Shown here: one piece after another, positions 4,724 through 63,577 of the stretch | Layout: every line of letters begins with the position of its first letter | How positions within the stretch are numbered: position 1 is the stretch's first letter | Source: Eukaryota sp. GEM-RC1 | Lineage: Eukaryota | DNA length: 64,000 bases | NCBI GenBank assembly: GCA_040285855.1 | Contig: JAUFOQ010000013.1 | Span: 1,178,001 to 1,242,000 of the forward strand | Direction: 5' to 3' | Program-made: the position numbers and the translations under genes | The notes under the pieces: generated by a model | The model's input: only the letters and a program-made list of their open reading frames with translations | Database searches by the model: none | What the model was told of the DNA's origin: nothing

Positions 4724-6812
4724 CTGTCAACCCTGGATATAGCGTCATTATATGGTCGACGCTATATCCAGTTTTGCGCTATATCCAGTTTTCATGTATG
4801 AACATAAACACATCTACGGACACATTGTATACATAACACATGACGAAAAAAGACTGTGGTGGTCATCAGCACACACTACTGGGAGACTTTAAAACCGTCA
4901 CAGGGACAAGATATTACTACCAAAAATATTTTTGTGGTTGGAAGAGGCTGAGTTCAAAGTAACATCCATCGAGTATAATTGCTAGGGCTGTCAATTTCTC
5001 CCATTTCTCCCAACTCCCACCCAACTCCCATCTCCCATGACCCTTGGGAGTGGGAGTGGGAGCTTCCGTTGGGAGGTGGGAACTCCCAAAATCTCCCATC
5101 TCCCATTTACAGACACAACTCTAACTTCAATTTAAAACAGAAACAAGCTAGCTAGACAAATACAGTTATAATTTTTCTAGAATATTAATAGGACTAGGTG
5201 TATTACATTTTTACTGTCTTTGTTTTGTTTTATTTATTTTCGTTTTATAAAGAGCGTGGTTGTTTATCTGTAAATTTCAACCAATGTCATCGCTTGATTT
5301 ATCTGAAGATCCTGAAAACTCTGGTCTGTTTAAACATCCTGATTTTATTGAATTTGTTTCCTCTCTTTCAGTTTCCAAAATTCCAAAAAGAACCACGATA
5401 AGAAATGATATGTTGAATGTTTATGAGTCATTTAAAGGATACTTGATAGATAAATTCAAAAATGTGTGTAATTCTTCTAAAGTATCTATTAGGATTGATA
5501 GATGGAGATCGAATACAAACAAGCATTTTAATGGGGTAAGAGTTCACTGTATTGAAGACTGGAATTTAAACATTTACAATGTACGTCCACGGTTTTAAGC
5601 ACCTGAAAGAAAACCACACTGCCATCAACATTGCCGATGCTGTGGAAGAAATTATTACTGAATTTGGTTTAAAATACAAAATGTGTTGTGTTTCAACAGG
5701 TATTCACGACTATCCGCATACATTGTATGCTAAGAACTTTATGACAACACAAGCCTCATCAGTTCCAAGTGAACAGTTATTTTCTCAGGCAGGGTGTGTT
5801 GTTACGAAGTTACGAGCTTCCTTGAGTAGTGATTCTATTGAAGTAGTCCTTTGTTTGAAATCATGGTTCAAAGGTCGGGAGATGAGAGAGTTGTTCATGA
5901 ATCAGAGATAGAGTTAGTGATTGTTATGTTTATAAAGTAAAGTGTCATTGTACTAGAAGATACAAAAATGGGAGTTGGGTGGGAGTTGGGAGAATTTGTT
6001 GGGAGTGGGAGTGGGAGTGGGAGTCTCACCTATGACAAGTGGGAGGTGGGAGTGGTAGTGGAAGAACACGTGTTGGGAGGTGGGAGAAACTCCCATCTCC
6101 CATTAACAGCTCCTAATAATTGCTCAACCGTTACATTCTATTGTTCGGCTGAGTGGAAGAAGTGGGGAAAAGAAGTTAGAACCTTCCTCTCACTCCTCGT
6201 TAAGATCTCTCCTCAGAAGTTCTATGTTTGAAGCCTTCCTGCTGACGAGCAAAACCATTTTCCTGACAGGTCTTCGCCTTATTCCCAAAAGTCGAGGCAC
6301 AACGCATCCAAAAAAGGCTACAAATGTACAACATCTTCACAGTTCTGTATTTACACCTTTTCCGGATATAAAACAAGTTCAAACACAACTCTAGTGATGT
6401 TAGTAATCGAAGTCTCTTCTTGAGCAACATGTATATATATGAAAACATCTTCCCTGAAACCTTCTCCCCTTCAACGACAGTCTTTCTCCTTGTACGAGGT
6501 GATTCAAGGCATGTCATTGATACCAATGACTCACTAAGAGATGAAGATCTATCCGGTTGTTTATGGTGTGAATGTTGATAATACTTCTTTGGAAAGCAGA
6601 TAAGAACATTTTCACTGCATCGGCAAGTTGTAAGTCCATGTGGTGATAGAACAATACTAATTGAACAGTTTATTGTAACTGCAAAAGACACACAAGGGAA
6701 AAGACACGAGAATCAGATTGTTGCACAACAAAAAATGTGGAGGAGAATGTCGGACAATGAAAATTCACGAATTAACGCTATATCGGATATACGGTGTATC
6801 CAGGGTTGACTG
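4724..6812. mobile_element. Tc1/mariner-pogo-like non-autonomous DNA transposon carrying a nested hAT element
   Basis: TA|CTGTCAACCCTGGATA at 4722-4739 and TATCCAGGGTTGACTG|TA at 6797-6814: 16-bp TIR with 1 mismatch and a TA duplication. CGCTATATC subterminal motifs occur near both ends. Confidence 0.75.
4983..6115 (+). mobile_element. Internally deleted hAT transposon
   Basis: Perfect 8-bp TSD ATAATTGC (4975-4982 and 6116-6123). TIRs TAGGGCTGTCAAT / ATTAACAGCTCCTA, GGGAG/CTCCC subterminal repeats. Transposase remnants SIRIDRWRS, HTAINIA and the C-terminal dimerisation motif ASSVPSEQLFSQAG...RASLSSDSIE..LCLKSW. Confidence 0.92.
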
Positions 6813-6930: not shown

Positions 6931-7004
6931 GCCGTCCTAGCTCAGATGGTTAGAGCGTACGACTGAAGATCGTAAGGTCCGTGGTTCAAATCCGCGGGAT
7001 GGCA
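6931..7004 (+). tRNA. tRNA-Phe(GAA)
   Basis: Cloverleaf: acceptor GCCGTCC/GGATGGC, D arm GCTC/GAGC, anticodon arm TACGA-CTGAAGA-TCGTA, T arm CGTGG-TTCAAAT-CCGCG. No encoded CCA; followed by TTTT. Confidence 0.97.
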
Positions 7005-8795: not shown

Positions 8796-8929
8796 GTCTC
8801 AGACTAATTTCCCCAGTTATTATTTGGTCTGAATCAGAGCAATTGTTGTGAAGATTGTAGTTGTTTGACTTCTTAAAGTAAATCATTAAAAACAATTTTC
8901 ATTTGGAATATCAATTTAGGGCCGACTAA

Positions 8930-10500
8930 GAAACAATTCATTGAATTTTCTAAACGATTTCAGAAAAATCATGTACAAACGCTTTGATCGTATGTTGTAT
9001 CTATTTTGCTGTTTTCAAAACAATTCCCCTATACATCTCCCAAGTTGTATTAGCTGTGAGTTTATTTGAAGTTAATGATGTTGTAATATTTGAAAATGAT
9101 GGGTGTTGTTTTAATGATATCAAATTGCTGTATTTTAATTTACTACATTCATAAATATATCGTCGAGGTCCCAATACAAACAACCTTAAAACATTTACAA
9201 ACATACCGTTTACTATGCTCATAATGGAACCTTGCTTGTATTGGGTTCCATTTAATCTCTCTTTGTATATATTTTTTAGAATGTCTTTTTGTTTTTAGAA
9301 AAAGATCAGGGAGATGAGAACAACACCTAGAATTCAATATCATTAAAACAACATTCATTGCAATTGTAACTCACATCAGCTTTTTCTTCATAGAAAAGAC
9401 TGAAAGCTCATAGTACTTTCGAAATCATAAAAGAATTGTTTTAAACATTGTAAAAACAATACGATTCAACCAAAACTTTTAATGAAAATTTTTGGTCATT
9501 ATTTTTGACAACTTTTTCAAATTCAGAGAGAAAACAAAGAACATCTTCACCACATCGACCAAAAATTGTTTTTTGTATAATGTAAGAATATTCATGACAA
9601 GATCACAAACAAACTGGAATGGAAAATTGATAACGTCAATCATGACAGACAGCTAGTGTTGATTAAATATCTTTATTATAGTTTAAATTTCACTTATCTC
9701 CGTCCCATAAACCTATGTTTGATATTTTCTCTGATACTAGTACCCCTTTTGACGGTATAGTTAGCACTAGATCAATTGAACCACAATCAACATCACAATA
9801 TTGCAACAAGGACTTTCAACTAAAGTTATTGGACTAACAGATTGGCATTTTCAGTTTTCAAGGCTATGCTGAAAAATAGGACTATCTTTTTCTCACCTTT
9901 TGATTTGTTACCGTTTCATTACATATAAGACTTGCATTCATGATGCAGTCAGAGATCAAATTCATGCCATGTGTAAGCATTTGCTGAGCCTTTATTGAGA
10001 TCAGTAATTTAAAAAATAGTGATTCTGATAAGACTATTGAAAAAGAAGAGCTGATGTCATCGTTCGATTAGTCAACGAGGATTTTGTCTGTTCCAATTGG
10101 TCAAGTGAGAAGATCAACACTTCAATAGGAAGTGGTTGGTTTCTGTCGAAGTGACAGTTGTTGATGTCACTACTGTGGATGTTTGTAAAAAAAGTTCATT
10201 AAAAGATGCTAAAATTGAAGTGTCTCCCCTTGATTATTCAGAACAACATACCCATATGACTTGGCTCAAGTCGTTCGGTTTACGGCTTGAGCCGAACCGT
10301 TTGACAGCTCCAGTACTGTGTGTGTATACATATACACATTTTCAAAAACTGATTTGGACTGAGTGGAGAACTCATGGTATCTGTTGAGTAAATTTACATG
10401 ATATATGTAAATCAAAAGCTCTGTTGTCAGTGCGTTGCTTCTATTGTCAAAATTATGGAGTCAAATTTGATGTCAACGCGTGTTGTTTTAATGACCTTGA
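8930..10500. mobile_element. Cluster of 3' fragments of the RLE non-LTR family (8930-9130 +, ~9328-9560 -, 9935-10245 +, ~10455-10500 +)
   Basis: Nucleotide similarity to 3087-3690, for example CATGATGCAGTCAGAGATCAAAT, GTGGATGTTTGTAAAAA and the recurring 3' motif TGTTGTTTTAATGA. Confidence 0.75.
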
Positions 10501-45155: not shown

Positions 45156-45454
45156 AGTGAACTTTATTTGAGACGTTTTTAATTTCTTGTAATTTCTGGT
45201 TATCCTATGTATATTCTCAAGTGTTGTTATTGCTTGGAATAAAACCTCTGTTGTTCTTAATTTCTTACCAGTTCTTTTCCGGATCGCTTCTCCACAGGGT
45301 AATTATTAAGTTCGTCTTCTTCAACTGATGGTGATTTCATTGATTCCTTAAGACTGACATTATTTTCCAAACACTGGTGCAGCAATCTATTCATCGATTG
45401 TTGTCGAGTAAAACGGAAAATTGTAGTTTACCACATAAATAAATAAATTTATTA

Positions 45455-45577
45455 ACTACTACTGTGAATTTCATTCCAAATGCATAAGGGCATAACCCTT
45501 CACATTTTCATGAGATAAACCACAGTTGACAAAGTCCTCATTCGCAAAGTCTTTTAAAACGAGCTAACTTCATAGAT
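45455..45577 (-). ncRNA. Putative Fanzor omegaRNA: scaffold down to 45475, then flank-derived guide
   Basis: Directly downstream of the Fanzor stop. Stem AUGAGG..UCUCAU (45541-45510), then AAAUGUG-AAGGGU-UAU-GCCCUU-A-UGCAUUU (45507-45478), then GGA and the direct repeat. The 5' end is unknown. Confidence 0.6.
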
Positions 45578-48500
45578 TCAAGATTCCTGATCTTTCTGGT
45601 TTACGTGTGAGTCCTTGGGTACATCTTTCTTAGGCTTATTTGGACAAGTTGTTTTGTTATGTCCAGGTTGAGAACATATACGACACTTGTTAGGACCTCT
45701 GACTTTTGTTAGAGGACGTTTTGCCTTACCCTTACCCTTACTCACAGTCTTTTTCTTAGGAATCTGATCTGTATTCCCGCCATCCACGACAGGTGTTGTT
45801 TGAGATTTTGGTCTCTCGAGGATGGCAGGTCTACCTTGACCTTGAATGGTTCCATTTACAATATTGTAAATATTGATAGCAGAGTTGAAGTCTCTATTCC
45901 AGAGGACATGACATTTAGCACATTCAACTAAGCCCCATGGTGAGACTTTGTTGTTCTTCAATCTTTCTTTCGAAAATGGCAACTGGTCTGTCCATTCTTT
46001 TTCAAAGTTACGCTCCACAATATTGTCTAATTGATTGTGTTCCATAATTTCCTTTTTTAATTCTTTCTCTTCCTTCTGTAACTTCTTCTTCCAATGAGGA
46101 TCTGTGACTTTTATCCTTTCAGGATTGGAACAGATACCTTCGTCGTTTCTGGAAACACATGCAGAGCAACATTTGCTGGTCTTAAATTCATCAACTAGGA
46201 ACACTTTAAATCCAAATTTTCTTAATAATTTCCGAATTGAAGCACCTTTTACAGTAGATGCTTTACCTCTTCTTCGACGAAAAGCAGTGTCGTTCCAGTC
46301 TCCATACCCAACAACGACTTCATCTGGGTTTCCAAACTGGAGAGCAAATCTGTGAAGCATGTTTTTCTCACTTCGTTCCTTTCTTGAATACTGTGTGAGA
46401 CGATTCCTCCTAAACCACTTTTCTTCGTAAATTCCTTCAGTAGTTCTTTGATCAGTAGTGGGTGATCGTAATAAAGAACAGGTAATTTCTTTACCAAGAA
46501 CAAAATCAGAATACTGAGTCAAATCACAAGATCTACTGCCTGGCGAGTTAGAGCCCCATTGATCTAAAATTTGTTGCCCATTTATGTCAATGCGTCTGCC
46601 ATCTGGAATGTGAATAAATTGAGTAGAATATTGTTGTAACCGTTCGGATTCAGATAAACGGTGGAGATTGTATCGTCTTATTTTCTTCTCCAGCTTCCTC
46701 TTCTTTCTCTTAGCTCTTTTTCTTTCCTTCCTTGTTTTTTTCTTTTCCATGGAGACTTTTTAATATCGGCATTGCGTTCCCCAGCAGTGTATCTGAATAC
46801 TTTCCAATTGTCTCGATTTTTCAACTTGACAGTTGATGGTTTGTCAATAGTAGGTGCGTCTTTCCAATCCTTCAATTCCTTTTTTAATTTTTTCAAGCTT
46901 CCTTTTTTCTTTGACGATTTTGGACAAATCTTTCTTCTTCTGAGATTGGCTGATGTATCGAAACCTTCGATTTTCTTTTCCTCCTTAGATTTTAAAGAAG
47001 CACAATACATCAAATCATGCTGATTAGGATCAATAGCAACAATTCTTTTTGATTTCAAATTTAAGTTTTGAATTTCTGTGGAACTCAAAGAATCAATGTA
47101 CCTTTCAGTAGCTGTGTAGTCAACAGCTTTCACCTTCTTATGAGGATTTCCTCTCCCATCAAGCAGATCTTTCCGCATCATCATTAAATTACAGCTAACT
47201 CCATCTGTAGAAATAGAACTGTATTTGAAGTCATGAGACAATGACTTTGGAAGACACTTTGGTTTCAAAACTGAGTGCCAAATATCTTTTCGAACGTCAT
47301 CAAAGCTACCTTTAATTTCTGATGCATAAACTTTTTTAAACCATGTAGTATCCAATCTGATATGATTAGGAATCAATGATTTTGTCAGAGGAAAAGGATT
47401 ATTGGCAGTAACACCAGTACAAGAGTCTTCAACAAGACGTTTCAAATACACTGCATGACTTAAGAATTTCAAAGGATCTACTTTTTCAGCATTATAGATT
47501 GTTTTCTCCATTTTACCTTCAAAAAAAGTAAACAAATAATTAAAAAATAGTAAACTCAGTCTAGAATTGGGATCAGGAAACATTTCAACATCTTGAAAAT
47601 TAATTTTTGAAATTTCCCCATTAATGATCAACTGTCTGACTTCATTAAGCTTTGTACACAACTCTTGTCGTTGATTCTTATCAGTAAGCTTGTTAAGTCT
47701 ATCTTTTTCAGGGTAACCAAATTAAATACTTGAAAAACATATTCGTGAAAGTGTTCACTCATGTTATTCTTGTAATTTGTAATAATTTCTGTAGCCATGT
47801 AATGCAATATAGGAGATAAACGATGGCTACTGGGAAACACAATCCTATCAAGTCCAACGGAATCAGCAGCTAGTTCTAAACGAGGAATGTAATGAAACAA
47901 TAAGTGTTGAGCAAACTGATTTTGAGTTGAGCCATCATTTGTGTTAGAAATTATGTTTGTTAACGATTCTTGTACAGTCTCAATATGATTCTGATTGTTT
48001 ACAAGTCTTTCGTCCCTAATCGTCATCATAGACAACACTTGTTCCATTGATTGCAACGTAAAAAATTCTTCCAGTCTGGCAATTCAATTTTGGCAGTTTG
48101 AATTTTAGTCCAAAGGTCAGGTTCAGGTTTAGGTTCATCACTCGCATCTTCAATATTTTCTAATTTAATAGGAGGAGTAGCAGCATGGATAGACTCTGAA
48201 TGTACATCTGTTTCTTCTTCAGTTGACTCATCTGTATCAGAATTCATTTCTTCCTTAACAGTTACATTTGGAACAGTAGCAGGCAGTAACTTCTGAATGT
48301 AACCTAAAATACCAGAATGTTGAAAATTATGAACAAAAAAATGTTTTAAAAAGAGAGTACTACGGACTCGTACTTGATGAGCTCTCTTAACACGAGATTC
48401 AATAAATTTAACCTTCACTTTGGATACAACATTGTCTAGTCGTTTCTTAACCACTTTCATTGGTGACTTTGAACGTAATGTTTGTTTTTTGCGATCCAAT

Positions 48501-51019
48501 AGGTCAGCCAACAAGTACTCAATCAGAGGCAATTGTTGAATTGAGTTGATCAACAATAGCGGTTTTGTCGATTCCTTGGCCCAAAGTTCATTTACTTTCT
48601 CCAAATTTCTTACAAATTTCTTTTTAATCTTATCGACCTTCACTTTGGGATTGTCTGGAACTAAAACATTAATACTGTCAATTATGCCATGCAAGTTTTG
48701 GACATTATTGACCAATTGAACTTCATCAGGATCAGAGTCATGATTAAGATCTTCCAAGCGTTTGACAGTTTCATTTTTAGAAAAATTATTCATTTCAAGA
48801 AAAATTTGAACAACATTTTCCAAAAAACGGCCACCAGTAAAGACATAAAAATTCTTCAGTACAGCATTCAAATCGAGACTAAAAAACGGACCAAAAGTTG
48901 TTTCCTTACACCATTTGTTTAACCAAAAGGGAATATAGGGTTTAAATTCTGGAAAAGTAAACGTTGTATTGATTTTGAGGACTTGACAACGTGATACAAG
49001 AAAGGGAAATGTATCTAAGTGAAAGTCATAACTCACAAACAATCGTGGACAATGTTGAGTAATGAAGGAAATGAAGTTTTTAAGCATACTGGATTCACTA
49101 TCTGAAATATGTAAAGTACACAAATCCAAGTTTGAAGTATCAAAATTGCCATGAGAAAATAAATGCCTTTCATTTAGCTCATTGTGATCAATGATCTGGA
49201 TGGAAATTGATACAATAGGATCAACAGAAGAATCACGTTTAACTTCTAATTGATCTTCAGCTTCACCTTCAACAGTTTCAATGTCATCATCATCTTCTTG
49301 AACAAGTTGAACATTTCTGCCATTAATTCTTTCTTTTTTGGCAAAATCACTTTGAACATGAATTAAACAAAAAGTTGGTAGATTGTTCCAAAGTAGAGGG
49401 GATTTAAGAAAGTCTTGAATTTGTATTTCTTCTTCTATAGGCTCAGTGTGTAGATTTACTTCCATTTTATGAATTTCTTCTTGAATTGGCGATGGATACG
49501 ACATAATGGAGGCCTGTGATTTTGGTGGTAGTTCAGATGGTGGTAGTTCAGATGGTGATGGAGGCAATTCAGATGGTGGTACTTCAGATGATTCCAATGT
49601 GGACATACGGCGGTGAGTCTTTCGTATTGGAGTGTCACCAGTTGAAACAAGGGAGCTGGTAGTTCTAAATTTATTTCGTTTAATTAAAGGTGAACCTCGT
49701 GGTGATGGAACATCTGAAATTTTGGCTTTCCTTTTTTTAGTGCTTAAACCAGTAGATGTTTTAGTGCTAGCAAGACGTGAACCTGTGAGAGGAATTGAAG
49801 TGGTTGGATGTTCTTTACCGGCAGGAGGTTGAATGGGTAACGATGGTACAATAGGAGCTACTGTGGTTTGACGTTGTTGTAGATAAAGTGTCCTTTGTTG
49901 AGACAATACATCCAGAATTTTTTCACGAAATATGTCTGCTTGAAGTTCATTGTTCACTTGGACCAAATAAGTTTCCAAATACATCAGAGACGGAACATAC
50001 GTGAGTCTTTTAAAAAGTTCAACATATTTTTGAATATACGCAATGACATAAACTCCACAGTCGTTAGCAGACTGTGTTTTAGTCACAGGCACATAACGGA
50101 AAACATACCCCCATGGCACAAGTACTTCGGATAATATGTCTAAAGCTGATTTTACCATAGACTTACTCATATCTTCGCTAGTTAACATTGGATCAATGAA
50201 GATCCAAGAATTTTCACAACAGTCTATAATGGCTAAACCCCAATGAGAACCAGTGACACCTTCTCTGGAATAATTAGCATTTCTAGTCATGGTATCACTA
50301 AGGGGAACAAAGAGGTATTTGGAGTTTATGATTTGATTTTTCTCAATTTTCGTCAACAACCATTGATCTAGCGGGGCATCTGGTGAAACAATATATTGAA
50401 GCAATGTGGTCGGATGGATAAACATGCTTTCAAAGTCTAACTCTGCTTCTTGAAATATCACTTTACAGTACTCCACTATCGCTTCGTCATCAACCCATTG
50501 ATGAGGATAAACTGAGTTTATGGCTTCTTGAGTTACGGGTCCTGGATTGGATTCAATATCACCATCAGCGGTGAGGTCTTTTGGGAACGGAGGATGGGAA
50601 GGGATAACACATGGATAGAAGTAGAGTACATACAACAGCAGAGATGGAAGTGTTTTCACAACATAGAAAAAGCTATCCATATATCGACTCAACGGAGATA
50701 GAATCCAAGCAGGGGATTCCGCCTCATATTGGGTCAAATACAAACAACAAGGTGGCAGCATGACATCAACGGGAGAGGAGAAAAAGCTATCCATATATCG
50801 ACTCAACGGAGATAGAATCCAAGCAGGGGATTCCGCCTCATATTGGGTCAAATACAAACAACAAGGTGGCAGCATGACATCAACGGGAGAGGAGAAAAAG
50901 CTATCCATATATCGACTCAACGGAGATAGAATCCAAGCAGGGGATTCCGCCTCATATTGGGTCAAAAGAGGAGCCTTGTACGGAACAGAGTGTCTGTTAG
51001 AATGTAAAACAACCAACAT
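45578..51019 (-). CDS. Polyprotein: leader + 2A peptide + Ulp1/C48 protease + PolB 3'-5' exonuclease-like domain + Fanzor1 (TnpB-like RuvC nuclease) + CCHC zinc knuckle, ~1700-1810 aa; three 1-bp frameshifts
   Basis: ORFs 48026-51019, 47628-48056, 46678-47661 and 45578-46750 join by one added base each. Fanzor1 motifs YMATEIITNYKNNMSEHF, PFPLTKSLIPNHIRLDT, ISTDGVS, RuvC-I VAIDPN, GYGDW, VDEFKTSKCCSAC, CAKC..WNRDFNSAINI. Start may be the ATG at 50680. Confidence 0.88.
50537..50578 (-). other. 2A-like ribosomal skipping (StopGo) peptide DLTADGDIESNPG|P
   Basis: Exact match to the D(V/I)ExNPGP consensus, immediately before the protease domain. Confidence 0.85.
50665..50966. repeat. 114-bp tandem repeat, ~2.6 identical copies, at the 5' end of the Fanzor polyprotein ORF
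   Basis: AGAAAAAGCTATCCATATATCG... starts at 50665, 50779 and 50893. The 38-codon unit preserves frame. Confidence 0.95.
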
Positions 51020-51055
51020 TTGTGGAGAGAGGAAAATGAAATGTTTCAGTCATCC

Positions 51056-51073
51056 CTGTAGTCTAGACTACAG
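51056..51073. promoter_or_regulatory. Perfect 18-bp palindrome in the divergent intergenic region
   Basis: CTGTAGTCT|AGACTACAG is its own reverse complement. Function is not shown by the sequence. Confidence 0.45.
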
Positions 51074-51314
51074 TACAATTCTACTATCACTTGTAGTCAG
51101 TAGAGTGTCAAAACATCAAAACAACTCTTATGTTATACCATCATCCGTTACCATTAGTGATTACTTAAGACGTCTTTAAGACTGTCAATCGTATAACCAA
51201 ACTCATTGACTTAGTTCTCTTCTGAATTCATTTGCTATAAAGCCATGTATAGTCGTAGACGAGAAGAAAATGAATTAATTCCAATAAGTAATGAAGTAAT
51301 GAATGTAAATTCAC

Positions 51315-52836
51315 ATGTCTGGAACGAAATCTGTAATAAAGTCTATACCAGAATTTCCCATGTCCTACTCAATCTTCAAACTCAGAAATACTTCTGAACA
51401 AGAAAGTCGTTCCCGTACCATCAAAACATATATGAAACTTGTTGTAAAGCTTGCTGATAAACATGCAGTTAATTTGTCACTTGTTCTTCTTCCTTATGGA
51501 ACATACAATTCATGGAGAACTAAATCCATCCACATAACGGAAGTGTCAACATCTGACTTACCAGATGATCTTAAAAGGGTACCATGGATTTTTGCCTCAG
51601 CTACAAATCAGCCGTTGCCATTGTGCTAGATGTTGATCTAGAAACTGTTCATCTCTTTCCTTTTGATGGTTCTTATGAGAAGCGTGACATATCTCTTCCA
51701 CTTCCTTCAACAACTTCAACTCTAAATCATCTTAAGGATCTACTCAAAGACGTTAAAGGAGATACAATTGCTCTTTCCCCTCCTCCTCCTCAGCCTCAAT
51801 CTCCTGCTCTTTTACATGATTGTGACATTACTCGCATTGACGATATTCCATCTCAAGTCGTTTTTCCTTCACCAAAACGTCGTATTGATAACTTCGCAAT
51901 TAATCATATTCATTCTATTTTCTCTGAACCATCTGAAATAGTTCCTGTTCCAGTCAGTGATAATGCTAATTTATCTAAACCTATGAAACGCAAAAAACAA
52001 CGTAACCCGTTGATTCTTTCTGTAGATTTAATCAGTGATCGGTTTTACATAAATTCAAAATTAAAATTTGAATTTAGTGATATTGAGAAAATGTTGACAA
52101 AGGATGATAGGGAAGGTAAAACACAACTCTTGTTGAGTTCTGAACTTGATTTCATTGTGATGCTTGCATTCCAAAAATTTAAATCAAGTAGGTACAAGTT
52201 CCTGCAATCTCAAGAAACTCAACAGTTGGTTGGTGATCCAATATGCTACGCCTTACATTCTGGTAAGGCTATTGTCGATACACTAAAATCAGGAAAAGAA
52301 TTCTTGCCCCATTATGTTTGGTGAAAGAACATGTTCCTGGTGATGCAGGATCTGGTCATTGGATTCTTATTGAATTGTTTCTAAATGAAGCAAATGTTTT
52401 ATTATTCAATATTTATGATTCTTTGGATTATTCATTAACCACTGAATTAATCGTTAATCCTTTTAGAACTGTTTATGGATGTGGGGAAACAAATCTGTTT
52501 GCAAGATTACCAGAGTATAAGGTGGACTACTATATACCTTTTGCACAGTCAACATCGTCTCTTATCTGTGGATGGATTGTCTGTTTGAATGTTACTTTAA
52601 TTTTACAAGGATTAATGGTTGATGCACGTCAGGAACAAAATCAGACAAAATTAAACACTAACAGATCAAGAAAAAATCTATGTCTTGTTATGTATGATCT
52701 ACTTCAGAGTGTACAACCTGACTTGGTGACAGAACAAAATGTAATTGATTGTTCAAGAACAAAATTTGAAAACAAATCGTTAAAGACAAAAGACGAAAAT
52801 GAAGTTTTAGGGAAAAAACAGGAAAACGAAGAATGA
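51315..52836 (+). CDS. Second Ulp1/C48-like cysteine protease (~505 aa, catalytic domain C-terminal); two 1-bp frameshifts
   Basis: ORFs 51315-51629, 51584-52324 and 52318-52836 join by one added T each. Motifs GHWILI, IYDSL and AQSTSSLICG give the His-Asp-Gln-Cys order of clan CE proteases. Confidence 0.72.
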
Positions 52837-53304
52837 AAACAACTGCAAGTGCTTTTGGAATCAAAAAGACTTTAAAAAAAATGAATTGATAGTGATAGAG
52901 AATAAATAGTACAATATAGATGTATTTATAATTTTGTATAACATATAAGAATAACACATCAAATAAACAATATTTGTACAATATTACAATGTTCAATGAA
53001 ATGTGTCAGACGTAGTCTAAATATCAATGTTTTGTTACATAGTTATTACATACAGAACAATCCGTGAATTTCATCCACCTGAAATCTGACAGAAATTTGT
53101 TACAGATTTAGTATGTCAGAAAATGTGACATATAAAACCAGACCAATTTGTTACATATTCAGTGTAGATGTGGTAGCATAGTTTATGTGAAAAATCATGG
53201 TATAAATTATAAATTTAGACCAGAAAAGATAAATAAAGATAAATTGTAATAAAGTATATTGTTCTACATAATAAAAAACATCAATGAAGTATTAAAAGAC
53301 TACA

Positions 53305-56300
53305 TCAATTCAGGTGTTGGCAATCCTGAGGGTCCAAAGAAGTTTTTTGCAAATTTTGCTTTTTGTCTTTATCACTGATAGAATCGTAAAAGATTACGAT
53401 TTTTTGATTTTGTTCATACAATTTGGCAACAAGTTTGGCATCACTTGGTAGATCAAAGATTATACAAAGATCAGCCTGAACAGAATGGTTAACCGCTAAT
53501 TGAGTAGTACTAATCATTATAACAGACTTATCATCCTTCTTGAATTGACTGAGACTGTAATCCTTGGAACGTTTACTTTGTTTCCCGGTCAGTTCAACCA
53601 CGGTAAAAGGAACTGACTGATCACGTCTGAGATTTTGATATAATTTCGGTGAATTTACATCAGTTGTAATTAGCACCTTTTGCAGAGACTTGACAGAGAC
53701 TTGACTTAACAAATGCTTGACATAGCTGATATTCTCATCCACAGTTGAGACACAAATGATGAATTGCAGTTTTGGTGATGTATCAACGAGGACAAAAGCT
53801 TTGTCTTCATTCTCAGAAATCTCAACGACTGATTCAGAAATAGATTGAGACGGTTCTTGAGTCAACTGTGTATGAAAAGCACGTAGTTCAAGACATCGTT
53901 GTTCAAAAATTTGATTAATTTCTTTTGCATCACAGTGACGAACATCACGAACTTCTAAAAATGCACCAGAAATACACAGCACAGATAAAGCTGAAAGAAT
54001 AAAAAGTGTGTCATCATTTTTCAGAATGATAAAAGAATCCAAATCATTACAAAACTCAATTTTTTGTAATTGAACAGCTAAATCACCAAATGAACAGTCA
54101 ATTATAAACTGTACTTGTTTCTGTGGCAGTTTCAAACCGAAACCAATACAAAACCCTAATTCAGTTATGTACATTATTGTGTCATAACGTTGTACATAGA
54201 CTGCATCTATAATTCTGTCATCGTGATGACATGTACAAAGATCCATTACTTTTGTATCAAGCCGCTACTTTTCATACAAATCTAGCTTTCGGATGGTTAA
54301 TGTACCAACAATTAATATCAAATTGTCATAACGTCTTAATTTTTTAAACTGTTCTCCGCGTTCAATTGTTAAATCATCTAAATCTAACAATATTGAAAGA
54401 GAATCCCATTCTAAGTCTTTTTTGTCAGTTTCTGTAACTGAAATAACCGACAATATACAATTCGATATACAAATGAAAGAATTGGTTGTACCAACCATGT
54501 CAATAACATTGGGGTCACTGCGATTTGGTGCACATGGCAATGCTTTTCGACCAACTTTTCCAGATGGCTTCTTGTAATGTAGAAAAAATTTGGGACCTTC
54601 AGAAGCTACCAGTACAGCATATCCACCCAATTGGCCATGAAGAGCAAACATTGTTAATTGATGTTCAAAGGGTTTGCAGAATTCTTCAACTCTTCCCGAG
54701 CTACGTTTAAAAAATTTGAGGACTTTACCATTGTTGTAGAAAACAAAATTTTTGCCAACAAACAACACGACAGGAGTAGGATCGAACTCCGTCACAGCCT
54801 CAACCTCCGTCACATGCTCAACGACACTGTTGTTGTCTGCCAAATCTAATGTTCCAATGTGGATTTTGAACTCTTGTTCAAATACAACATAGAACAAAGA
54901 ACCTGAATTATGTACAAAATTCAGAATTTTACAACTTTGTCCCAAATATGTCGCAGAATAAGTATTGACCTTACAATTGGTATTAGTCCAAGACAATAAA
55001 TCACTAACACATGGTTCTTCAGTAGCTTCAACAATCATTTGTTCAGTACCTTCAGCAATTTCAGTACCTTCAGCAATCATTTGTTCAGTACCTTCAGCAA
55101 TTTCAGTAGCTTCCATCATTTCTTCAGTACCTTCAGCAATTTCAGTAGCTTCAGCAATCATTTGTTCAGTACGAACTGTAATTTCAGAATTCAAAATAGA
55201 ATTTAGATCAACAGATAGTATCCCACAGATTGGACACGAAGGATTAAAACACATCAACATGTTGCTTTCATCTCTCAATTGAAATTTCAAAAGCTGAAAA
55301 TGATGATGTCTTCTTTCGACAAAATCCACAGCAACTGATTGATCCTCAAATCTACTCAAATCAATACCAGCAATTCTTTGATAAAAAGCGGATAAATCAA
55401 CTGAAGAAACAATTCCTTGTTCAGTCAAATATACCAGAATGCGTAATCTGTTGATACATCCAAAAGTTGATTCAATAAATGATTCTTGATAAGACCAGAA
55501 CACATTCCAGAGACGTTTAACTTGAAATATTCCATTAAGATCTAGCTCGTGACTTAATAAATATAATTGAAGATAATTGTTGTCAGAACAGTGATCTGGT
55601 CTACCGATCTTGACAACTGGTTTTTCAAATTCTAATTCTGATTCTGAATTAATATTGAAGTTCATTAACCATATGATGAACAAATTAGTTGTGCACGGGA
55701 TAAATGATAATAATTGGGGCAGCTTGTCTCCAACAAAAATTCCATTGTGGTAACTTGCAGTATCACTAGTAGGAGCTAGAACAGTAGGAAGAGGAAACAG
55801 TGTCTTGTTACAGTTGACTGAATAAAATTTCTCATAGTCAAGACGATTGTACTGAATTAAATCAGTACATGGTTTTACAGCAACTTCAAATTGTAGCATA
55901 ATAGTTTTTTTCTCACAACATTCAATGTGATCCCAATGATACAATTGACTATACATTTCCCAAAAAGATTTGTCTTTAATAAATTCTGTTGCCTTATTCC
56001 ATACAATCGTACGACCACTAAAGAATCTATTGTGGTCAAAGTACAATTTGATTTTGAACTTCTTAATTGAACTTACATTTCCACTACACTTGTGAATGAA
56101 CAATTGATCTTGATACTCATCAGAAAATTGTGATGTAAATATTGCAGTGGAACTTTCATTGTCTTGTAAGTAGATACCAAAATTCGGAGTCTTACCCTGT
56201 TTTAACAACCCTTGAACAACAAACTGTTTACCAAACAACGTTTCAATAAATTTGTCAAAAGATTCTTTGTCTTTAACTCTGCCATACAGTTTCAATTGGA

Positions 56301-57973
56301 TTTGAGAAGATGAATTGTTTACCACAGTTGTGTGGAAGGCCTTATTGGGATACGAGGCCACAACTGCTTGGTAGAGGGTCATTGCTGAATTTGAAGAGTC
56401 ACAAAAAGTACAACAAAAATCGATGATTGTTGAAGAAATTCAACGAGAGTAGATTCGGAAGGATTGGTAACAAAATTTAACAGCATCAAGGCAGTGGACT
56501 TAAGATTAACTAATTTTTTTACAAGAGTAAATGGGGAGTCTTCCATATACTGGAACCGTGAAACAAGAGATCTTAGTTCATTCAAATATCTCTCTAGTTT
56601 TTTTAAATGTACATATCTAGATAGATTATCAATAGCGCCTTTATACCTTGGTTCTGTTGAATCGTATTTTTCAACCGGAAGTTTAGTAAATTTTGCACGA
56701 AAAATATAATCAACCAGTGATAATTTTAAAAACATATCTGAACAAACAAATTCAGAAATTTCCTCATCATTACCCAAAGTTGATAGAGATTTTAATACAT
56801 CAATTGATTCTGAAAATTTGAATAAATCATAAAATGAATCAAAAGTACGATGACAGCGAATAAACGACATAGAGTTGATACCAGCTAACATAATCAACCC
56901 TTGAGAGAGATAATCATTTTTAACACAATAAAACAAGAATTTAAAATTGAAGAACGAAATATTCGCCTTACTGCACAACTTCCCCAAACAAGTCAACTCA
57001 GAATCGAGGTTGTTTTGTGTGAGAACATTGTTGCGGAAGAGCACATCAACTGTAGATAGGATATTCTCTGATGAAGGAATATCTGGCAATTCGTTGATGA
57101 AAGATGTAGGGTCAGTAGCAATTTGTTTCATCGTCAACAATGGTTCAATTAATGAGCATGTCAATATTTCAGGTTTGTCGTAGTCTAGTCGTGGAAAACG
57201 GTTTGGAAGGAATTTTGTACTTACAAGACGTAACGCAAATCCAGCTGAATTTCTACCAGCACGACCAGAGCGCTGGTCCAAAGAAGCAATGGAGCAATGG
57301 TGAGTTTCCAGAAGATCATCAACATCCGTTTGTTTCGACAAACCACAGTCAATGACAAATTTTACACCGTCAATTGTCAGTGAAGATTCTGCTATATTTG
57401 TAGCAAGAACAATTTTGAATTGATTCTCCATTGGTTTCGCCACTGCCGTGTCTTGTTGATTCGAATCCAGGCTTGAATATAAAGGATGAACATTTGGTTT
57501 AACTGTACGTGATACATCAAGATCAGGTTTTTTCTGTTTAAGGAGAAATGTATACTCATTCTCAATGTACTGAGTAAGCGTAGTAATTTCTGGACTACCA
57601 GGAAGAAACACAAGCAACGTAAATCCTTCACAGTGAGAAAACCGCTTGAATATTGACTGTGCAAGCGAGTAATAACAGAGACAAACTTGAGCCAATGCTT
57701 TGAAGTTTATACTCTTGTGTGAAATTGGGTTCAAATTTTTGACGAAATGAGAGTAGTAACGACAGACACTGCTAGTAAAATATTGATATATTTTACAAAA
57801 GTGGTACTTAAAATGGCGTAGAACCTCACGATCTTCGAAAAGTCTGATTTGGACAAGTTGACTACCAACGGTGTCTGGGAAAAAGTATTGACACTAATGC
57901 AGTCATAGTCAACAACAACAAGTGGGTTGGTTCTGCCAGTAGCATGGATGGTATAATTGTTTTCACAATTCAA
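53305..57973 (-). pseudogene. DEAH/RHA helicase-derived gene lacking the N-terminal RecA1 domain, with a long unknown middle and a degenerate DEAD-box-like RecA2 at the C-terminus
   Basis: GRTNPL, LVFLPGSPEI, IVLATNIAESSLTIDGVKFVIDCG, QRSGRAGR and an HA2-like region are present; no Walker A or DEAH box seen upstream. Two 1-bp shifts and an in-frame TAG at 54265-54267. The last ORF resembles helicase C domains (VIMISTTQLA...IIFDLP). Confidence 0.65.
55020..55170 (-). repeat. Coding minisatellite (EATEIAEGTEQMI-type units)
   Basis: Repeated TTCAGTACCTTCAGCAAT blocks, in frame in ORF 54265-56382. Confidence 0.85.
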
Positions 57974-58435
57974 ATAAAATGACTGGTTCCTACAATCCTG
58001 AGTTAAATATCTGAAACAAGGATTTGGAGTGTCTGATATTCCAAATATGAAATTGAAACTTCAGTTGTTAAAAGATTTAAATTTATTGATGGCGGAAATT
58101 TTGAGTTTTCATTTGAATGATAGGGACAAGTACTTTAATGTGTTGTCGTTGACCAATACTTTTGTTATGTCGATATTAGATTTAAATGATGAAGTGATGT
58201 GTGATGAACATTGTTTGGGAATATTGGATGAATTTCGTGAAGTGATGTGTGAGTATTGTTGTGGGATTGGATATAAGGAGTCGTTTTCGTTGGCTGTGAT
58301 GTTTGCGAGGGTGATGGGGGGATATAGTAGTGTTAGTTAAGTTTGATAAACTGAGGTTGTATATTTTATTGGTTGTGTTTAAAAAAAATATCAATGTCTA
58401 GGTCAACAATTCATTACACATACGACACTTTCATT

Positions 58436-58897
58436 ACAAATGTTGTATCACCAAATGTTGTAGTTACAAATGTTGTATCACCAAATGTTGTATCACCAAA
58501 TGTTGTATCACCAAATGTTGTATCACCAAATGTTGTATCACCAAATGTTGTAGTTACAAATGTTGTAGTTACAAATGTTGTATCACCAAATGTTGTATCA
58601 CCAAATGTTGTATCACCAAATGTTGTATCACCAAATGTTGTATCACCAAATGTTGTATCACCAAATGTTGTAGTTACAAATGTTGTAGTTACAAATGTTG
58701 TATCACCAAATGTTGTATCACCAAATGTTGTATCACCAAATGTTGTATCACCAAATGTTGTATCACCAAATGTGGTATCACCAAATGTTGTTTCACCAAA
58801 TGTTGTAGTTACAAATGTTGTTTCACCAAATGTTGTAGTTACAAATGTTGTATCACCAAATGTTGTATCACCAAATGTTGTCATTACAAATGTTGTA
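58436..58897. repeat. 15-bp minisatellite, ~31 units with two main variants
   Basis: CCAAATGTTGTATCA and ACAAATGTTGTAGTT units; translates as (SPNVV/VTNVV)n on + and (TTFGD)n on -. Confidence 0.97.
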
Positions 58898-59292: not shown

Positions 59293-60220
59293 TGGGGTGA
59301 AGAGTTTTTGGGGTAAAATGATTTGGGACAACTGCAAAAATAGACACCTGATTTCCACACCGCCAAAAATAGACACCACACGTTCAATGTTACACAATTA
59401 TAGACATACTTTTTTAAGAGAGGGTTCAGAAATAGACACTGTGAAGATCAAGTCTTCTGCTGCATTTGTTCTGTTGTTATCTTTCTTTGTATTTCCTGCT
59501 GTTTTCGATATCAAGATGTCTCTATTTACATCACAATAAACCAGATTTATACATATCTGAACATCTAAAGACTATAGTACAACAATATCAACATCAATAA
59601 CACATTCATCTTCCTCCTAGCCCTCTTCGCCGATTCACTTGTCTGCGTCCTCTTCCGGACTGTCTATTGCCTGTAGGAGGTTGAAGTTCTGGCAATACGG
59701 GTTCATCAAGATTTTCCGGAACCCATTCCTGACGAGAAGCTACTGGCATCAAACCAATTTCATAGGTTTTGCAGTATTGTTCTGTGGTATAAAATTCTTC
59801 ACAAAACTCACTATAATCCAGTCTTTGAGCTAACAGCACCGCAAGCACATGAACACAAACAATCCCTATTCTTTTCCATTCTCCACAGCTGCAGAATCTT
59901 CATCACGACGTGAAGATGCATGTAGATGGTAGTTGCAATCGCTGTCGGTCTTGCATTTAACACTCCAGCGTTTTTTGCTGCTGTTCACTACACGAGTTCT
60001 TCTTTTTGTCCAGCTGTATAAAGATTGTGTTGATAGACCAAGTCTTCTTTGTTTGCAAAGCTGCTTCCCTGGGCAATTGTAGTATGTTGTCTTTGGTTGC
60101 TATCCATGTTGTAAAGTGTATGTGAGAAGAAATTTGTTAAGTGTCTATTTTTGAACATACTCCATTTTATGTGTCTAGAAATGAATTTGATTCAAATGAT
60201 TTTGGGGAGTATGCACCCCA
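59293..60220 (-). mobile_element. Internally deleted MULE/MuDR element
   Basis: From ATG 60107: GSSFANKEDL...SSKKRWSVKCKTDSDCNYHLHAS (MuDR N-terminal DNA-binding domain), joined directly to SWIM finger FCSCGEWKRIGIVCVHVLAV and FYTTEQY..TY...PV...EW...QPP..R..GR.R. Inverted CAAAAATAGACAC motifs at both ends. Boundaries approximate, no TSD found. Confidence 0.8.
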
Positions 60221-60469
60221 AATGAATTTAACTACTAGTATACTTTTTTTCCAAAAATCATATTGAATTCGAGCAACACGTCTAGGTGTACATGTAAAAA
60301 CTAAAACAACCGTTCTAATAGTTAGTTTCCTCAAATTCCATATTTTCTATTTGGAAATTCTCATCTACCTTATCTTAATAATGCCTGCCAAGAGATAATA
60401 AAGCGTTGGAAACAGAAGTCGTTATACATTTAATTTAAAATGATTTAAAGATAGAGAACAAAATTCAAT

Positions 60470-61230
60470 TTTTCGATTTCGGAAAAATCGTAAACAATAA
60501 GATGAACAAACGCTTTGATCGTATGGTTGAATCGTATCGTTTTACTATTTTTAATTCAATTCTCCTAATCATATCCAAAGCTTTATTAGCTGTGAGTTCC
60601 TTTTATGAGGACAAAGCTGTTGTAAGATTTGACAGTGACGGGTGTTGTTTTAATGATCTCAAATTTTAGGTTTTTCAGTATAATACATTTTTAAACAAAC
60701 GAGAACAAAAATTGTATTTTTCCAAAATCATAGAAGTACAAGGTACTTTCATTTACAATTTTTATAAACTTCTCAAGTAATGATGTTGCTGATTCACGTA
60801 CAGAACCATACAACGACGATACAAATGGGTACAACAAATAATTCTAGTGTGAAATCGAGTTCAAGAATTCCAATTTTGCACAGGATTTTCCGCTTTGAAT
60901 TCATCAGCATTTAAGAGGAGGATTTTTTAGTATTAGATTTGGCAAGGTTTTTGTTGGAATCATTATATACATCGATAGACATAACATCTGCGATAATGAA
61001 CGAACCATCAGGACCAGGGAATATCACATCACCAAGACTATTTCCAAACGATTTGACAACATCCGTATCATCAAACAAACCAGCCAAAACTGGTTCCAAA
61101 CACAAAACTTATCCATAAACAAAAGATTTGCACGTACAAAATCGATACCTTACTAGATCATGAACTTTAGAAACGGTTATATTTGAATAAATTTTAGGGG
61201 TCACAGACTATCCTCACTGGCATTTCACAA
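60470..61230. mobile_element. Two RLE non-LTR 3' fragments (60470-60670 +, ~60780-61230 -)
   Basis: The first closely matches 3490-3690. The second encodes LEPVL...GDVIFPGPDGSFIIADVMSIDV, an RLE-like motif of a related family. Confidence 0.7.
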
Positions 61231-61440
61231 TTATGAGGATTGTCAGGCCAAATACACGACCGCAAATGCATATTTAAGGACAATCAATTATTATCCAGAA
61301 AGCAAGGTTTTGTTTCCGTTTTGTTTCGGTTTTGTTTCAGAACCAAGAACAAGTGTCACAGGCTGGACACCTTGATTGTTGAACTGTGTCATAAAATTCC
61401 TCACATTATCTGCATTTATATGTCAATGTATAGATATGTT

Positions 61441-61793
61441 TAGTGTTACGAGAAACGTTTCTACGTTTCAGCGTTTCCGAAACCTTTCCAATAAACATAT
61501 CAGTACGGAATCGACATGGAAACGTTAAATACGTTTCGGAAACGTAAATTACGGGTCTGGTTTTAAATTGTACTTGTACAACAGAAACTCACCAAATACT
61601 ACAGATTGAGTCAGTTTGAGTGAGATAATTCTCTAACCAAAAAGGATATTTGCAATTTGATCTTGTTCTTGAGCTAAATCATTCGAAACTTCTCCGTGCC
61701 TTCAACTTATACGACTACTGATAAATCCTAGAAATTTTTTTAAATTCGTCTATCAAGGACGATTCACCTTTTGGTACGTTTCTCGTAACACTA
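61441..61793. mobile_element. hAT-type MITE, 353 bp
   Basis: Perfect 18-bp TIR TAGTGTTACGAGAAACGT. Perfect 8-bp TSD GATATGTT (61433-61440 and 61794-61801). GAAACGT subterminal repeats. Confidence 0.93.
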
Positions 61794-62092
61794 GATATGT
61801 TGATTCCATTTTGGCCAAGTTGTTTAGTGCTAACTACTTTACGAATTGGGTAGTTCGTTTTATAGATTGTGTTAATAGTCTTTATTGATTTTTTAAAATC
61901 ACAGAAAATTGAACTTGATATCAACCTCGATAGATGAAGAAGCTCACGCAAAGGATGTCCCATTTCACAACGGAGATGATTGAGATAGAAACTGAAGAAC
62001 AGATGTTCTAGATGGATATTGTTATACCATACAAAACGGACTCTCTGTGCAGATCAGTTCAGGTCTATGATCTGCACTGAGGTAAAATAGTT

Positions 62093-62164
62093 CTCACTCG
62101 GTGGGACTCGAACCCACAACCGATTGGTTCGAAGCCAATCGCGCTGCCATTACGCCACGAGTGA
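62093..62164 (-). tRNA. tRNA-Arg(TCG)
   Basis: Minus strand: acceptor TCACTCG/CGAGTGA, anticodon arm ATTGG-CTTCGAA-CCAAT, T arm GTGGG-TTCGAGT-CCCAC. TTTT a few nt downstream. Confidence 0.95.
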
Positions 62165-62447
62165 TATATTTAGATAAACTTCTATGACACTCCTAGGCCC
62201 TGCATCATGTGAAATTTAACCTAACTTGGAAGTTCCTAAGTCTTTCCGGCACATCCGATGACGATAGACCAGAACTTGCAACATTCATACTCCAATATGC
62301 CATAACAAACATCTTTCGCATCAAAATGTCAATATGTGTGCTAGGTCCTTAGAATTCTGACCTTCGTCCTTAATTGAGCAGAAATCTCTACTTTGGAACA
62401 TCCTCTTCATTCACTGCTCTTGTCTGAAAGCTTGTTCTTAAACAGAA

Positions 62448-63577
62448 ATGATTATCGGAGTTCCTAAAGAAATCAAAAACAATGAAAACAGAGTTGGGTT
62501 GACTCCTGCTGGAGTTCGCGAACTTACTAAACGAGGCCATACCGTCTATGTCCAACATACTGCTGGAGAAAACTCCGGGTTTCCTGATTCTGACTATGAA
62601 GAAGCCGGTGCTCATATTCTCCCTACCATTGAGGACACATATGCCGCTGTTGACATGATTGTCAAGGTCAAGGAGCCTATTGAGCCCGAATATGAGCTCA
62701 TCAAGGAGGATCAGCTCCTCTTCACATTCTTCCACTTCGCTTCTCATCTACCATTAACAGAGGCAATGATCAAATCTAAGTCTATCTGTGTTGCCTACGA
62801 GACTGTTGAAAAGTCTGATAAATCTCTCCCTCTTTTGGCTCCAATGTCAGAAATTGCTGGTCGCCTTGCTTCTCAAAAGGGTGCCAACTACTTGGAAAAG
62901 CCTTTGGGTGGAAGGGAATTTTACTTGCAGGAACCCCTGGTGTTTTGCCTGCACGTGTTGTTGTTATTGGTGGAGGAAGTGTTGGTTACAACGCTGCTTT
63001 AATGGCTGCTGGTCTTGGTGCTGACGTCATCATTATGGATGTCTCACTTCCCAGGCTTAGATACTTGGCTGAAGTTATGCCTAAGAATGTTAAAACTATG
63101 ATGTCTAATGATTATAACATTAGAAAAGTCATTAAAGACGCTGACCTTGTTATTGGAGCTGTCCTTATTCCTGGTGCCAAAGCTCCTCATCTCATTACCA
63201 GAGATATGCTTAAATTGATGCAAAAGGGAACCGTTGTTGTTGATGTGGCTGTTGACCAAGGTGGATGTATTGAGACATGTAAACCAACCACTCATGCTGA
63301 TCCTGTCTATGTCATTGATGATATTCTCCATTATTGTGTTGCCAACATGCCTGGATGTGTCCCTTTCACTTCAACTCTAGCTTTGACCAATGCTACTCTT
63401 CCTTATGTTATTCAGCTTGCTGATAAGGGCTGGAGACAGGCTGCACTTGAAAACTCTGAATTTGTTCCTGGCTTGAATGTTGTTCATGGTGATGTTGTAT
63501 ATAGAGCTGTTGCTGATGCTTTTGATATTCCGTGGGTTCCAGTAGAGAAGTATCTTTCTGCTGAAACTAACGAATAG
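62448..63577 (+). CDS. ald: Alanine dehydrogenase (~376 aa); one 1-bp frameshift near 62915
   Basis: MIIGVPKEIKNNENRVGLTP, VKVKEP, LPLLAPMSEIAGR, IGGGSVG, DVAVDQGGC, HYCVANMPG. One added G restores GGRGILLAGTPGV. Confidence 0.96.

Follow-up and report, generated by a model that had tools for sequence, protein, structure and literature searches.

The 64,000-nt window analysed here (positions 1,178,001-1,242,000 of contig JAUFOQ010000013.1 from Eukaryota sp. GEM-RC1, Skoliomonas sp. GEMRC) contains a putative mobile element on the minus strand (45475..53063), in which a Fanzor1 nuclease forms the C-terminal half of a polyprotein. This is a real, multi-copy and lineage-conserved architecture, and a new one for Fanzor1. 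The polyprotein gene (45578..51019, minus strand) would encode about 1,815 residues with three short homopolymer runs read through, and its product comprises a variable leader, a 2A/StopGo-like motif, a C48 cysteine protease, a linker, a PolB-type exonuclease domain, the Fanzor1 nuclease and a C-terminal zinc knuckle. Profile scans of the element revealed no DDE, HUH, recombinase or reverse transcriptase (RT) family; one weak PHROG “transposase” match (E 0.003) falls on the Fanzor C-terminus of a relative, P0026. A first-pass annotation made from the sequence alone had proposed a fused polyprotein without a transposase and with an architecture not known to have been described; the present analysis supports these points and adds that the family is multi-copy.

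The Fanzor1 part (WED-REC-RuvC-TNB; 45767..48472, minus strand) directly follows the exonuclease. As first reported, it retains all three RuvC acids (D 47031, E 46189 within DEFKTSKCCSAC, and D 45892) and both CxxC pairs (46168 and 45922), with the glutamate six residues upstream of the C4 zinc finger. Profile and structure searches agree with this assignment: Pfam identifies a Cas12f1-like TNB domain (E 3.8e-7), and the best PDB match of the last two frames is SpuFz1 (E 5.4e-7 and 4.1e-8). The enlarged REC domain, together with PDB matches to SpuFz1, PpFz1 and GtFz1, favors Fanzor1 over Fanzor2 or TnpB. A structural model of P0026 (residues ~261-1442) reached a mean pLDDT of 70.6, mostly high in the Fanzor part, and its top seven Foldseek matches are all Fanzor1 proteins (PpFz1, SpuFz1 and GtFz1), with a TM-score of 0.77 over SpuFz1. 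The sequence thus supports the Fanzor1 identity of the window's nuclease. Downstream, a putative CCHC zinc knuckle (45644..45687, minus strand) is indicated by a weak Pfam match (E 0.015) and the positions of its motif; it is absent from the protein of Eukaryota sp. TZLM3-RCL.

The polyprotein is spread over four overlapping minus-strand frames (48026-51049, 47628-48083, 46678-47721 and 45578-46759, with 1,007, 151, 347 and 393 codons), which connect across three homopolymer runs, each lacking a single base: a T6 run at 48060-48065 (break 1), an A5 run at 47704-47708 (break 2) and an A7 run at 46735-46741 (break 3). The three one-base repairs proposed in the first-pass annotation were recovered, its coordinates are correct to 1-2 bases, and the joined frames do hold the leader, DIESNPGP, the C48, exonuclease-like and Fanzor1 domains and the knuckle. 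The breaks were compared with those in named GEM-RC1 relatives, mostly 85-99% identical, where family 1 is the window's own and family 2 its sister. Break 1 is read through in five of the six other family-1 calls that span the run and in the sister-family proteins P0001 and P0005; a third sister-family call, P0200, breaks shortly upstream. All four calls that hold the motif upstream of break 3 read through it, and two further calls that start at or near it may be broken there. At break 2, read-through is seen in 4/4 family-2 calls. Within family 1, P0227 (1,040 aa) runs from the leader through 2A, C48 and exonuclease into the Fanzor REC domain in a single frame. Since relatives read through breaks 1 and 3 and the sister family through break 2, one continuous protein of about 1,815 residues is likely. 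Breaks at other runs are also common to several copies, with intact copies existing (7/13, 7/13 and 4/14 calls), and such recurrence is the behavior of systematic homopolymer errors. Six breaks of the same one-base-short type, judged by eye, lie in the neighboring giant host gene, and the assemblies of Skoliomonas relatives are nanopore-based and 28-55% repetitive according to the available part of PMC11316075.

The junction at ~48060 had been singled out as a possible gene boundary. A profile of stand-alone Fanzors (59 matches, each 590-800 aa long) spans all three breaks, from its position 4 at ~48472 to position 650 of 664; because it begins upstream of that junction, the sequence places ~48060 within the Fanzor fold and not at the edge of a gene. 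An AT-rich stretch of 39 nt (~47515-47555) was considered as an intron and ruled out, being coding and conserved in family 2. No protein of at least 1,477 aa carrying the protease-exonuclease part was found, in a search that is weak by the tool's own note.

At its N-terminus the polyprotein is variable. The window's leader (50579..51019, minus strand), in which a 114-bp (38-codon) unit is tandemly repeated 2.6 times at 50665-50966, is one of four interchangeable types. It is followed by the 2A/StopGo-like motif DLTADGDIESNPG|P (50537..50578, minus strand), where the stretch reads DLTADGDIESNPGP and DIESNPGP ends at 50537, conforming to D[IV]ExNPG|P. The exact D[IV]ExNPGP motif occurs in 25/252 proteins collected, all from Skoliomonas, with one additional variant, and in none of 138 other Fanzor hits or 33 metagenome loci. 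In the available text of PMC3708506, the motif by itself is described as insufficient, since skipping depends on the upstream context. Cellular 2A motifs are mainly found at the N-terminus of non-long terminal repeat (non-LTR) retrotransposon open reading frames (ORFs; PMC3708506, in the part available; bioRxiv 2026.06.17.732966). Among 23 calls with both leader and protease, the four leader types, single or double C48 cassettes and two exonuclease lineages occur in six complete combinations. Leaders appear exchangeable because the four types combine with differing C48 cassettes and exonuclease lineages, an arrangement that would fit a 2A that resets the N-terminus.

Immediately after the 2A motif lies a C48 protease of the Ulp1/SENP8 type (49901..50539, minus strand), recognized by Pfam Peptidase_C48 above the cut-off (E 6.9e-6), with SENP8 as its best PDB match (E 0.0026). 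The His-Asp-Cys triad and the oxyanion Gln are present (H 50245, D 50194, Q 50074 and C 50059), and the triad is retained in 15/16 other family-1 calls. A Ser/Pro/Thr-rich linker with short 15-bp repeats follows (49376..49900, minus strand). By eye, no conserved Gly-Gly site that would hint at self-cleavage was seen between the domains. GEM-RC1 copies carry a single C48 domain or a pair, and in the paired cassette the second has Ser where the catalytic Cys would be; the TZLM3-RCL relative has 2A, exonuclease and Fanzor1 and no C48. Therefore, the protease is not the defining module, and the conserved core, as judged by sequence comparison, is 2A-exonuclease-Fanzor1. Of the two domains predicted to be fused to the nuclease, the exonuclease thus recurs in other copies, including those of TZLM3-RCL, and the protease varies. 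It resembles the Ulp1 cargo that non-TIR (terminal inverted repeat) Mutator-like elements (MULEs) carry with unknown function (PMC13317346, in the part available).

The exonuclease domain (48509..49375, minus strand) belongs to the proofreading 3'-5' exonucleases of PolB polymerases (Pfam DNA_pol_B_exo1, E 1.1e-7, above the cut-off), a homology also found in P0026. The proposed exonuclease-like module is thus confirmed as to its origin, but its catalytic acids are degenerate in the window's family: ExoI D/E has become H/Q, ExoII D has become T, with a D one residue before the aligned T, and ExoIII is lost. In TZLM3-RCL, ExoI D/E, ExoII D and ExoIII Y/D are intact in all three calls that span them. 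With its catalytic acids replaced or lost in this way, the window copy is likely inactive; the TZLM3-RCL domain looks active. A DIET motif at an acidic loop was considered as ExoI and rejected, as the alignment places ExoI upstream. The domain adjoins the first Fanzor strand directly in both species. Structure prediction gave little confidence here, with a pLDDT of 37 for a single-sequence fold of the window's region and below 50 for residues 1-249 of the P0026 model.

Relatives of the last frame were taken from the best 150 of 1,046 matches. P0026 (TZLM3-RCL, 1,473 aa, cluster of four) is an intact single frame with a leader, LVLDGDVEANPGP and a Ser/Pro linker, continuing with the PolB exonuclease (E 5.1e-13; PDB match to Pol delta, E 4e-4) and a complete Fanzor1, without C48; P0190, from the same species, has the same architecture. 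In GEM-RC1, 70 locus tags of polyprotein pieces, from the cluster members listed, correspond to at least 67 separate places, the pieces being mostly 85-99% identical. Only two of the 27 Fanzor-part tags neighbor an N-part tag, so the genome holds either hundreds of copies or many partial ones. Skoliomonas Fanzors, including a fragment of S. litria type (P9112), form one clade in a FastTree phylogeny of 75 rows (support 0.993), and six Skoliomonas rows also group in an interim IQ-TREE tree covering 37 of the 75 rows, without bootstrap values. The same clade includes P0193, P0025, P0024, P0027 and P0029, which stand for one further divergent Fanzor family in TZLM1-RC and no fewer than three in GEM-RC1. 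The exonuclease and C48 profiles found no match outside Skoliomonas among the best 150 of 1,046 matches and 33 metagenome loci. The latter are stand-alone Fanzor loci on metagenome contigs, 0/33 with exonuclease, C48 or 2A, and neither the Fanzor and exonuclease alignments nor the divergent gene described below had a relative on the viral contigs searched.

At the 5' side of the element lies a divergent multi-copy gene (51360..52888, plus strand), with an uncharacterised N-terminal part and a divergent C48-like protease. It starts at the ATG at 51360, not at 51584, and its window copy contains three one-base-short runs; it is intact, at 504-507 aa, in four of the 15 cluster members listed. A second C48-like gene had been predicted here. 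In its favor are the motif residues (H 52357, D 52417, Q 52546 and C 52567) and an Atlas feature match (score 0.94; 23/30 matches are C48, with recognition below the strong threshold), but no significant C48 match was obtained with Pfam, with PDB or in a profile comparison with the first protease. It is thus best called C48-like, from its H/D/Q/C motifs and an Atlas match of modest strength.

Both genes had been placed between 11-bp direct repeats. The repeat ATGAAATTCAC is exact on both sides of the element and is the only 11-mer common to the two intergenic stretches, making it a plausible target-site duplication (TSD), with the divergent gene a candidate member of the element. The copy at the 3' (right) end (45464..45474, minus strand) lies 5 nt past a hairpin and 103 nt past the stop codon, and the copy at the 5' (left) end (53064..53074, minus strand) would also include the target-adjacent motif region. 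A third exact copy is found at 13557. No inverted match of at least 11 nt links the first and last 200 nt of the element, which thus shows no TIRs. By position, and with the hairpin present, the right-end stretch (45464..45577, minus strand) is the putative place of an omegaRNA. Its fold gives z -1.84 for 45440-45600 (6/200 shuffles) and z -1.97 for 45464-45530 (8/200), and Rfam found nothing credible at this end. An HGSNAT-like gene and a helicase-like gene flank the element, each with its 3' end facing it.

As for its class, neither gene encodes a MURA DDE transposase, and of the 8-11-bp TSD expected of a MULE there is one candidate 11-bp repeat, without TIRs. An RT domain and a 3' poly(A) or repeat tail, as in non-LTR elements, are missing. 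The ends read GGATT...TTGGA with a subterminal hairpin, without the TC...CTRR or asymmetric-TIR motifs of Helitrons, and there is no RepHel. By its sequence, then, the element carries the features of Fanzor1 and does not belong, as an autonomous element, to the MULEs, Helitrons or non-LTR retrotransposons.

Among known systems, Fanzor1 itself (SpuFz1, PpFz1 and GtFz1; PMC10432273 and PMC11423790, in the parts available) shares with the window's nuclease the sequence, the fold, the RuvC D-E-D triad, the TNB CxxC pairs and the right-end position. Differently from the polyprotein, the known proteins are stand-alone, with ~600-730 resolved residues as described there, whereas here Fanzor1 is the C-terminal half of 1,470-1,815 aa; Spu-1 has 30-nt inverted repeats, which the window element lacks. 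A close parallel is MCi-2 of Mucor circinelloides, a group of transposase-less Fanzor1 elements whose mechanism is unknown, with 11-12-bp TSDs, no TIRs, interchangeable 5' regions and a conserved Fanzor-bearing 3' part, as described in the available portion of PMC3627910. The earlier designation of the window element as a distinct element class is therefore too strong. That portion mentions no 2A, protease or exonuclease fusion for MCi-2; MCi-2A holds a partial Crypton recombinase, and the MCi-2 TSD pattern ATAATTNNNN(N) is unmatched in the window element. Non-TIR MULEs (Kaonashi/VANDAL; PMC13317346 and PMC6446971, in part) share the C48 cargo, the lack of TIRs and, for the candidate TSD, a length within 8-11 bp, but have a MURA transposase and no Fanzor, whereas the window element is without transposase. 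Non-LTR elements with 2A (L1Tc, Ingi and CR1/L2/Crack/Rex1; PMC3708506, in part) share D[IV]ExNPGP near the N-terminus of the main ORF. In contrast to these, the window element has no RT domain, APE domain or 3' tail, and the downstream product is Fanzor. The exonuclease belongs to the same Pfam family as the proofreading domains of Pol delta and T4/RB69 gp43, with ExoI-III intact in TZLM3-RCL; here it stands apart from any polymerase domain and is joined to Fanzor, and in the window's family it has degenerated.

The available parts of PMC3627910, PMC10711439, PMC10530073, PMC10432273, PMC11423790, PMC13565253 and PMC6338049 describe no Fanzor that is naturally fused to a protease or an exonuclease. 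Fanzor is not mentioned in the main text of two 2A surveys (PMC12338488; bioRxiv 2026.06.17.732966), and six supplementary files of PMC11316075 contain none of four named locus tags and no Fanzor or TnpB. The fusion was thus not found in the literature, although Repbase, subscription journals and the supplementary tables of surveys may hold it.

How might such an element persist and move? A reading with about an even chance of being correct is that of a Skoliomonas-type transposase-less Fanzor1 element that encodes a polyprotein, is moved in trans by a DNA transposase and is kept by RNA-guided cutting. It starts from what is observed: the domain order, the intact RuvC triad, the many copies and a 2A-exonuclease-Fanzor core common to a second species. 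From 2A biology, StopGo at NPG|P would free the repeat leader, so that any of the four leaders gives the same N-terminus, and the 2A may damp output too. For retention, TnpB restores its elements by cutting the empty site (cut-and-copy; bioRxiv 2023.03.14.532601, in part), and the omegaRNAs of Fanzor1 contain the 3' TSD and take their guide from ~15 nt of flank (PMC10711439 and PMC13565253, in part). Accordingly to that model of Fanzor1, a right-end omegaRNA including the TSD, with ~15 nt of flank as guide, would direct cutting of the empty allele, and recombination with the filled sister would bring the element back. Cleavage by nucleases of this kind falls at the distal end of the guide match. 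The cut would thus fall in right-flank DNA, some bases beyond the insertion point, and the left broken end would bear a short right-flank tail, unpartnered at the left junction of the filled template. The fused proofreading exonuclease would trim this unmatched 3' tail before invasion. In the window's family, the role of the apparently dead domain would be limited to 3'-end binding or to that of a scaffold, and host enzymes would trim. A precedent for this domain type is T4 polymerase, whose proofreading 3'-5' exonuclease influences how efficiently introns home (PMC2988022, in part). The SENP8-like protease would be a later cargo, taking NEDD8 or SUMO off host factors for silencing or degradation.

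The weakest step is transposition to new sites, which a non-TIR MULE-type transposase elsewhere in the genome would carry out. We favor such a transposase acting in trans because MULE TSDs measure 8-11 bp and non-TIR families exist (PMC6446971, in part), because MuDR-type Fanzor elements without transposase are known (PMC3627910, in part) and because a SWIM zinc-finger fragment, resembling the C-terminal part of a MULE transposase, lies 6.5 kb away (59606-59899, minus strand; Pfam E 1.9e-7). This fragment is a candidate relic of a mobilising family.

Several observations weigh against the proposal as a whole. The SWIM fragment is merely a neighbor, and no TIR or terminal motif links the element to a MULE. 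The putative omegaRNA fold is weak, since the stretch from stop codon to element end alone gives z -0.64 and the fold is slightly better than shuffles overall. Trimming cannot be catalytic in the window, as its exonuclease is degenerate. No GEM-RC1 call covers the whole protein, the longest having 1,098 aa, and break 2 is read through in 0/4 other family-1 calls (P0221, P0223, P0227 and P0230). A shared 11-mer arose in 269 of 2,000 simulated intergenic pairs (13%), so the repeat is not beyond chance. Lastly, 0/14 locus tags of the divergent gene fall within five of the 70 polyprotein tags.

The last three points also feed a composite explanation, in which the polyprotein element and the divergent gene are separate repeats, the 11-bp repeat is due to chance, and/or a real, programmed -1 frameshift at break 2 leaves full-length Fanzor as a minor product of family 1. 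The heptamer U-UUU-UUA at break 1 would suit the frameshift form, but a stable RNA structure is absent downstream of each run (z -1.4, +0.3 and -0.6), recurrent breaks also occur at other runs with intact copies, and sister families read through break 2. The tag lists cover part of the copies, and with 500 copies zero overlap has a probability of 0.28; given the missing adjacency, linkage would require either many copies or a divergent gene confined to some of the subfamilies. We consider this explanation unlikely, if the least so of the alternatives. Somewhat less probable still is mobilisation through RNA by a non-LTR retrotransposon acting in trans, with a retroelement-derived 5' module (tandem-repeat promoter, 2A and protease) and the 11-bp repeat as a duplication from target-primed reverse transcription. 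The 5' repeats, which vary in type and number, the lack of TIRs and the predominance of cellular 2A in non-LTR ORFs would agree with it, as would window fragments at 2035-3690 (plus strand), which by their motifs, and with no Pfam match, look like a CRE-type non-LTR RT and restriction-like endonuclease. The CRe Fanzor elements of Chlamydomonas, with 7-19-bp TSDs and 5' truncations, offer a parallel (PMC3627910, in part). However, the right end of the window element has no poly(A) or repeat tail, the element has no RT, and a divergent second gene at the 5' end is ill-suited to a single RNA intermediate; in the available part of a 2026 review, no evidence is seen of retrotransposons encoding Fanzor (PMC13565253).

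Alternatively, no transposase may be needed at all: Fanzor would cut new sites, the exonuclease and host repair would shape the ends, and the element would be copied in, with a short duplication left behind. The element indeed encodes no transposase, pieces of it occupy at least 67 places, mostly at 85-99% identity, and modules are shuffled among copies as from break-driven gene conversion. MCi-2 has the same unexplained ends, and an end-processing nuclease is here fused to the cutter. Yet a flank-derived guide targets just the element's own empty site and homing requires flanking homology, the dead exonuclease belongs to the high-copy family, and other DNA-transposon remains (SWIM and hAT) lie within the same window. 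This explanation is improbable, and equally so its bold form, an element class that spreads without transposase or RT, in which the polyprotein would process itself, its polymerase-derived exonuclease would prepare the ends, the C48 proteases would disarm NEDD8/SUMO silencing and MCi-2 would be a second example.

The remainder of the window contains other genes and repeats. The giant gene (10966-41250, minus strand; ~10,000 codons) is repeat-rich, and its product, which has a membrane segment at the C-terminus, is probably secreted or displayed on the surface; its six homopolymer breaks were noted above, and its 3' end is duplicated at 1-626 with 86% identity. Decayed hAT transposase fragments lie at 5251-5911 (plus strand; Dimer_Tnp_hAT, E 5.5e-7), and pieces related to the 2035-3690 fragments are repeated within the window near 8912-9977 and 60463-62019. 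The helicase-like neighbor of the element is a DEAH-like gene (53305-57893, minus strand) of unusual architecture, with Helicase_C near each end, one frame break and an in-frame TAG at ~54265. The window also contains a tandem array of short units (58434-58897) that is open in several frames, and what is presumably an alanine-dehydrogenase-like gene, judging from its sequence (62442-63577, plus strand; one frame break). Genes for tRNA-Phe (6931-7004, plus strand) and tRNA-Arg (62093-62164, minus strand) are also present.

What Fanzor naturally does in eukaryotes is still deduced from the TnpB of bacteria. The presence of Fanzor and a 3'-5' proofreading exonuclease in one chain, in two species, points to the processing of cut ends and hence to homing, and the natural pair in which the exonuclease motifs are intact in one and lost in the other allows a test of that job. 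In addition, 2A, known in cells mostly from retrotransposons, is found here in an element that lacks RT. P0026, in which nuclease and exonuclease are naturally fused, may be of use in genome editing, since its repair outcomes may not be those of stand-alone Fanzors. Finally, some of the repeat content of a relative's genome, reported as 48%, may be due to this element family.

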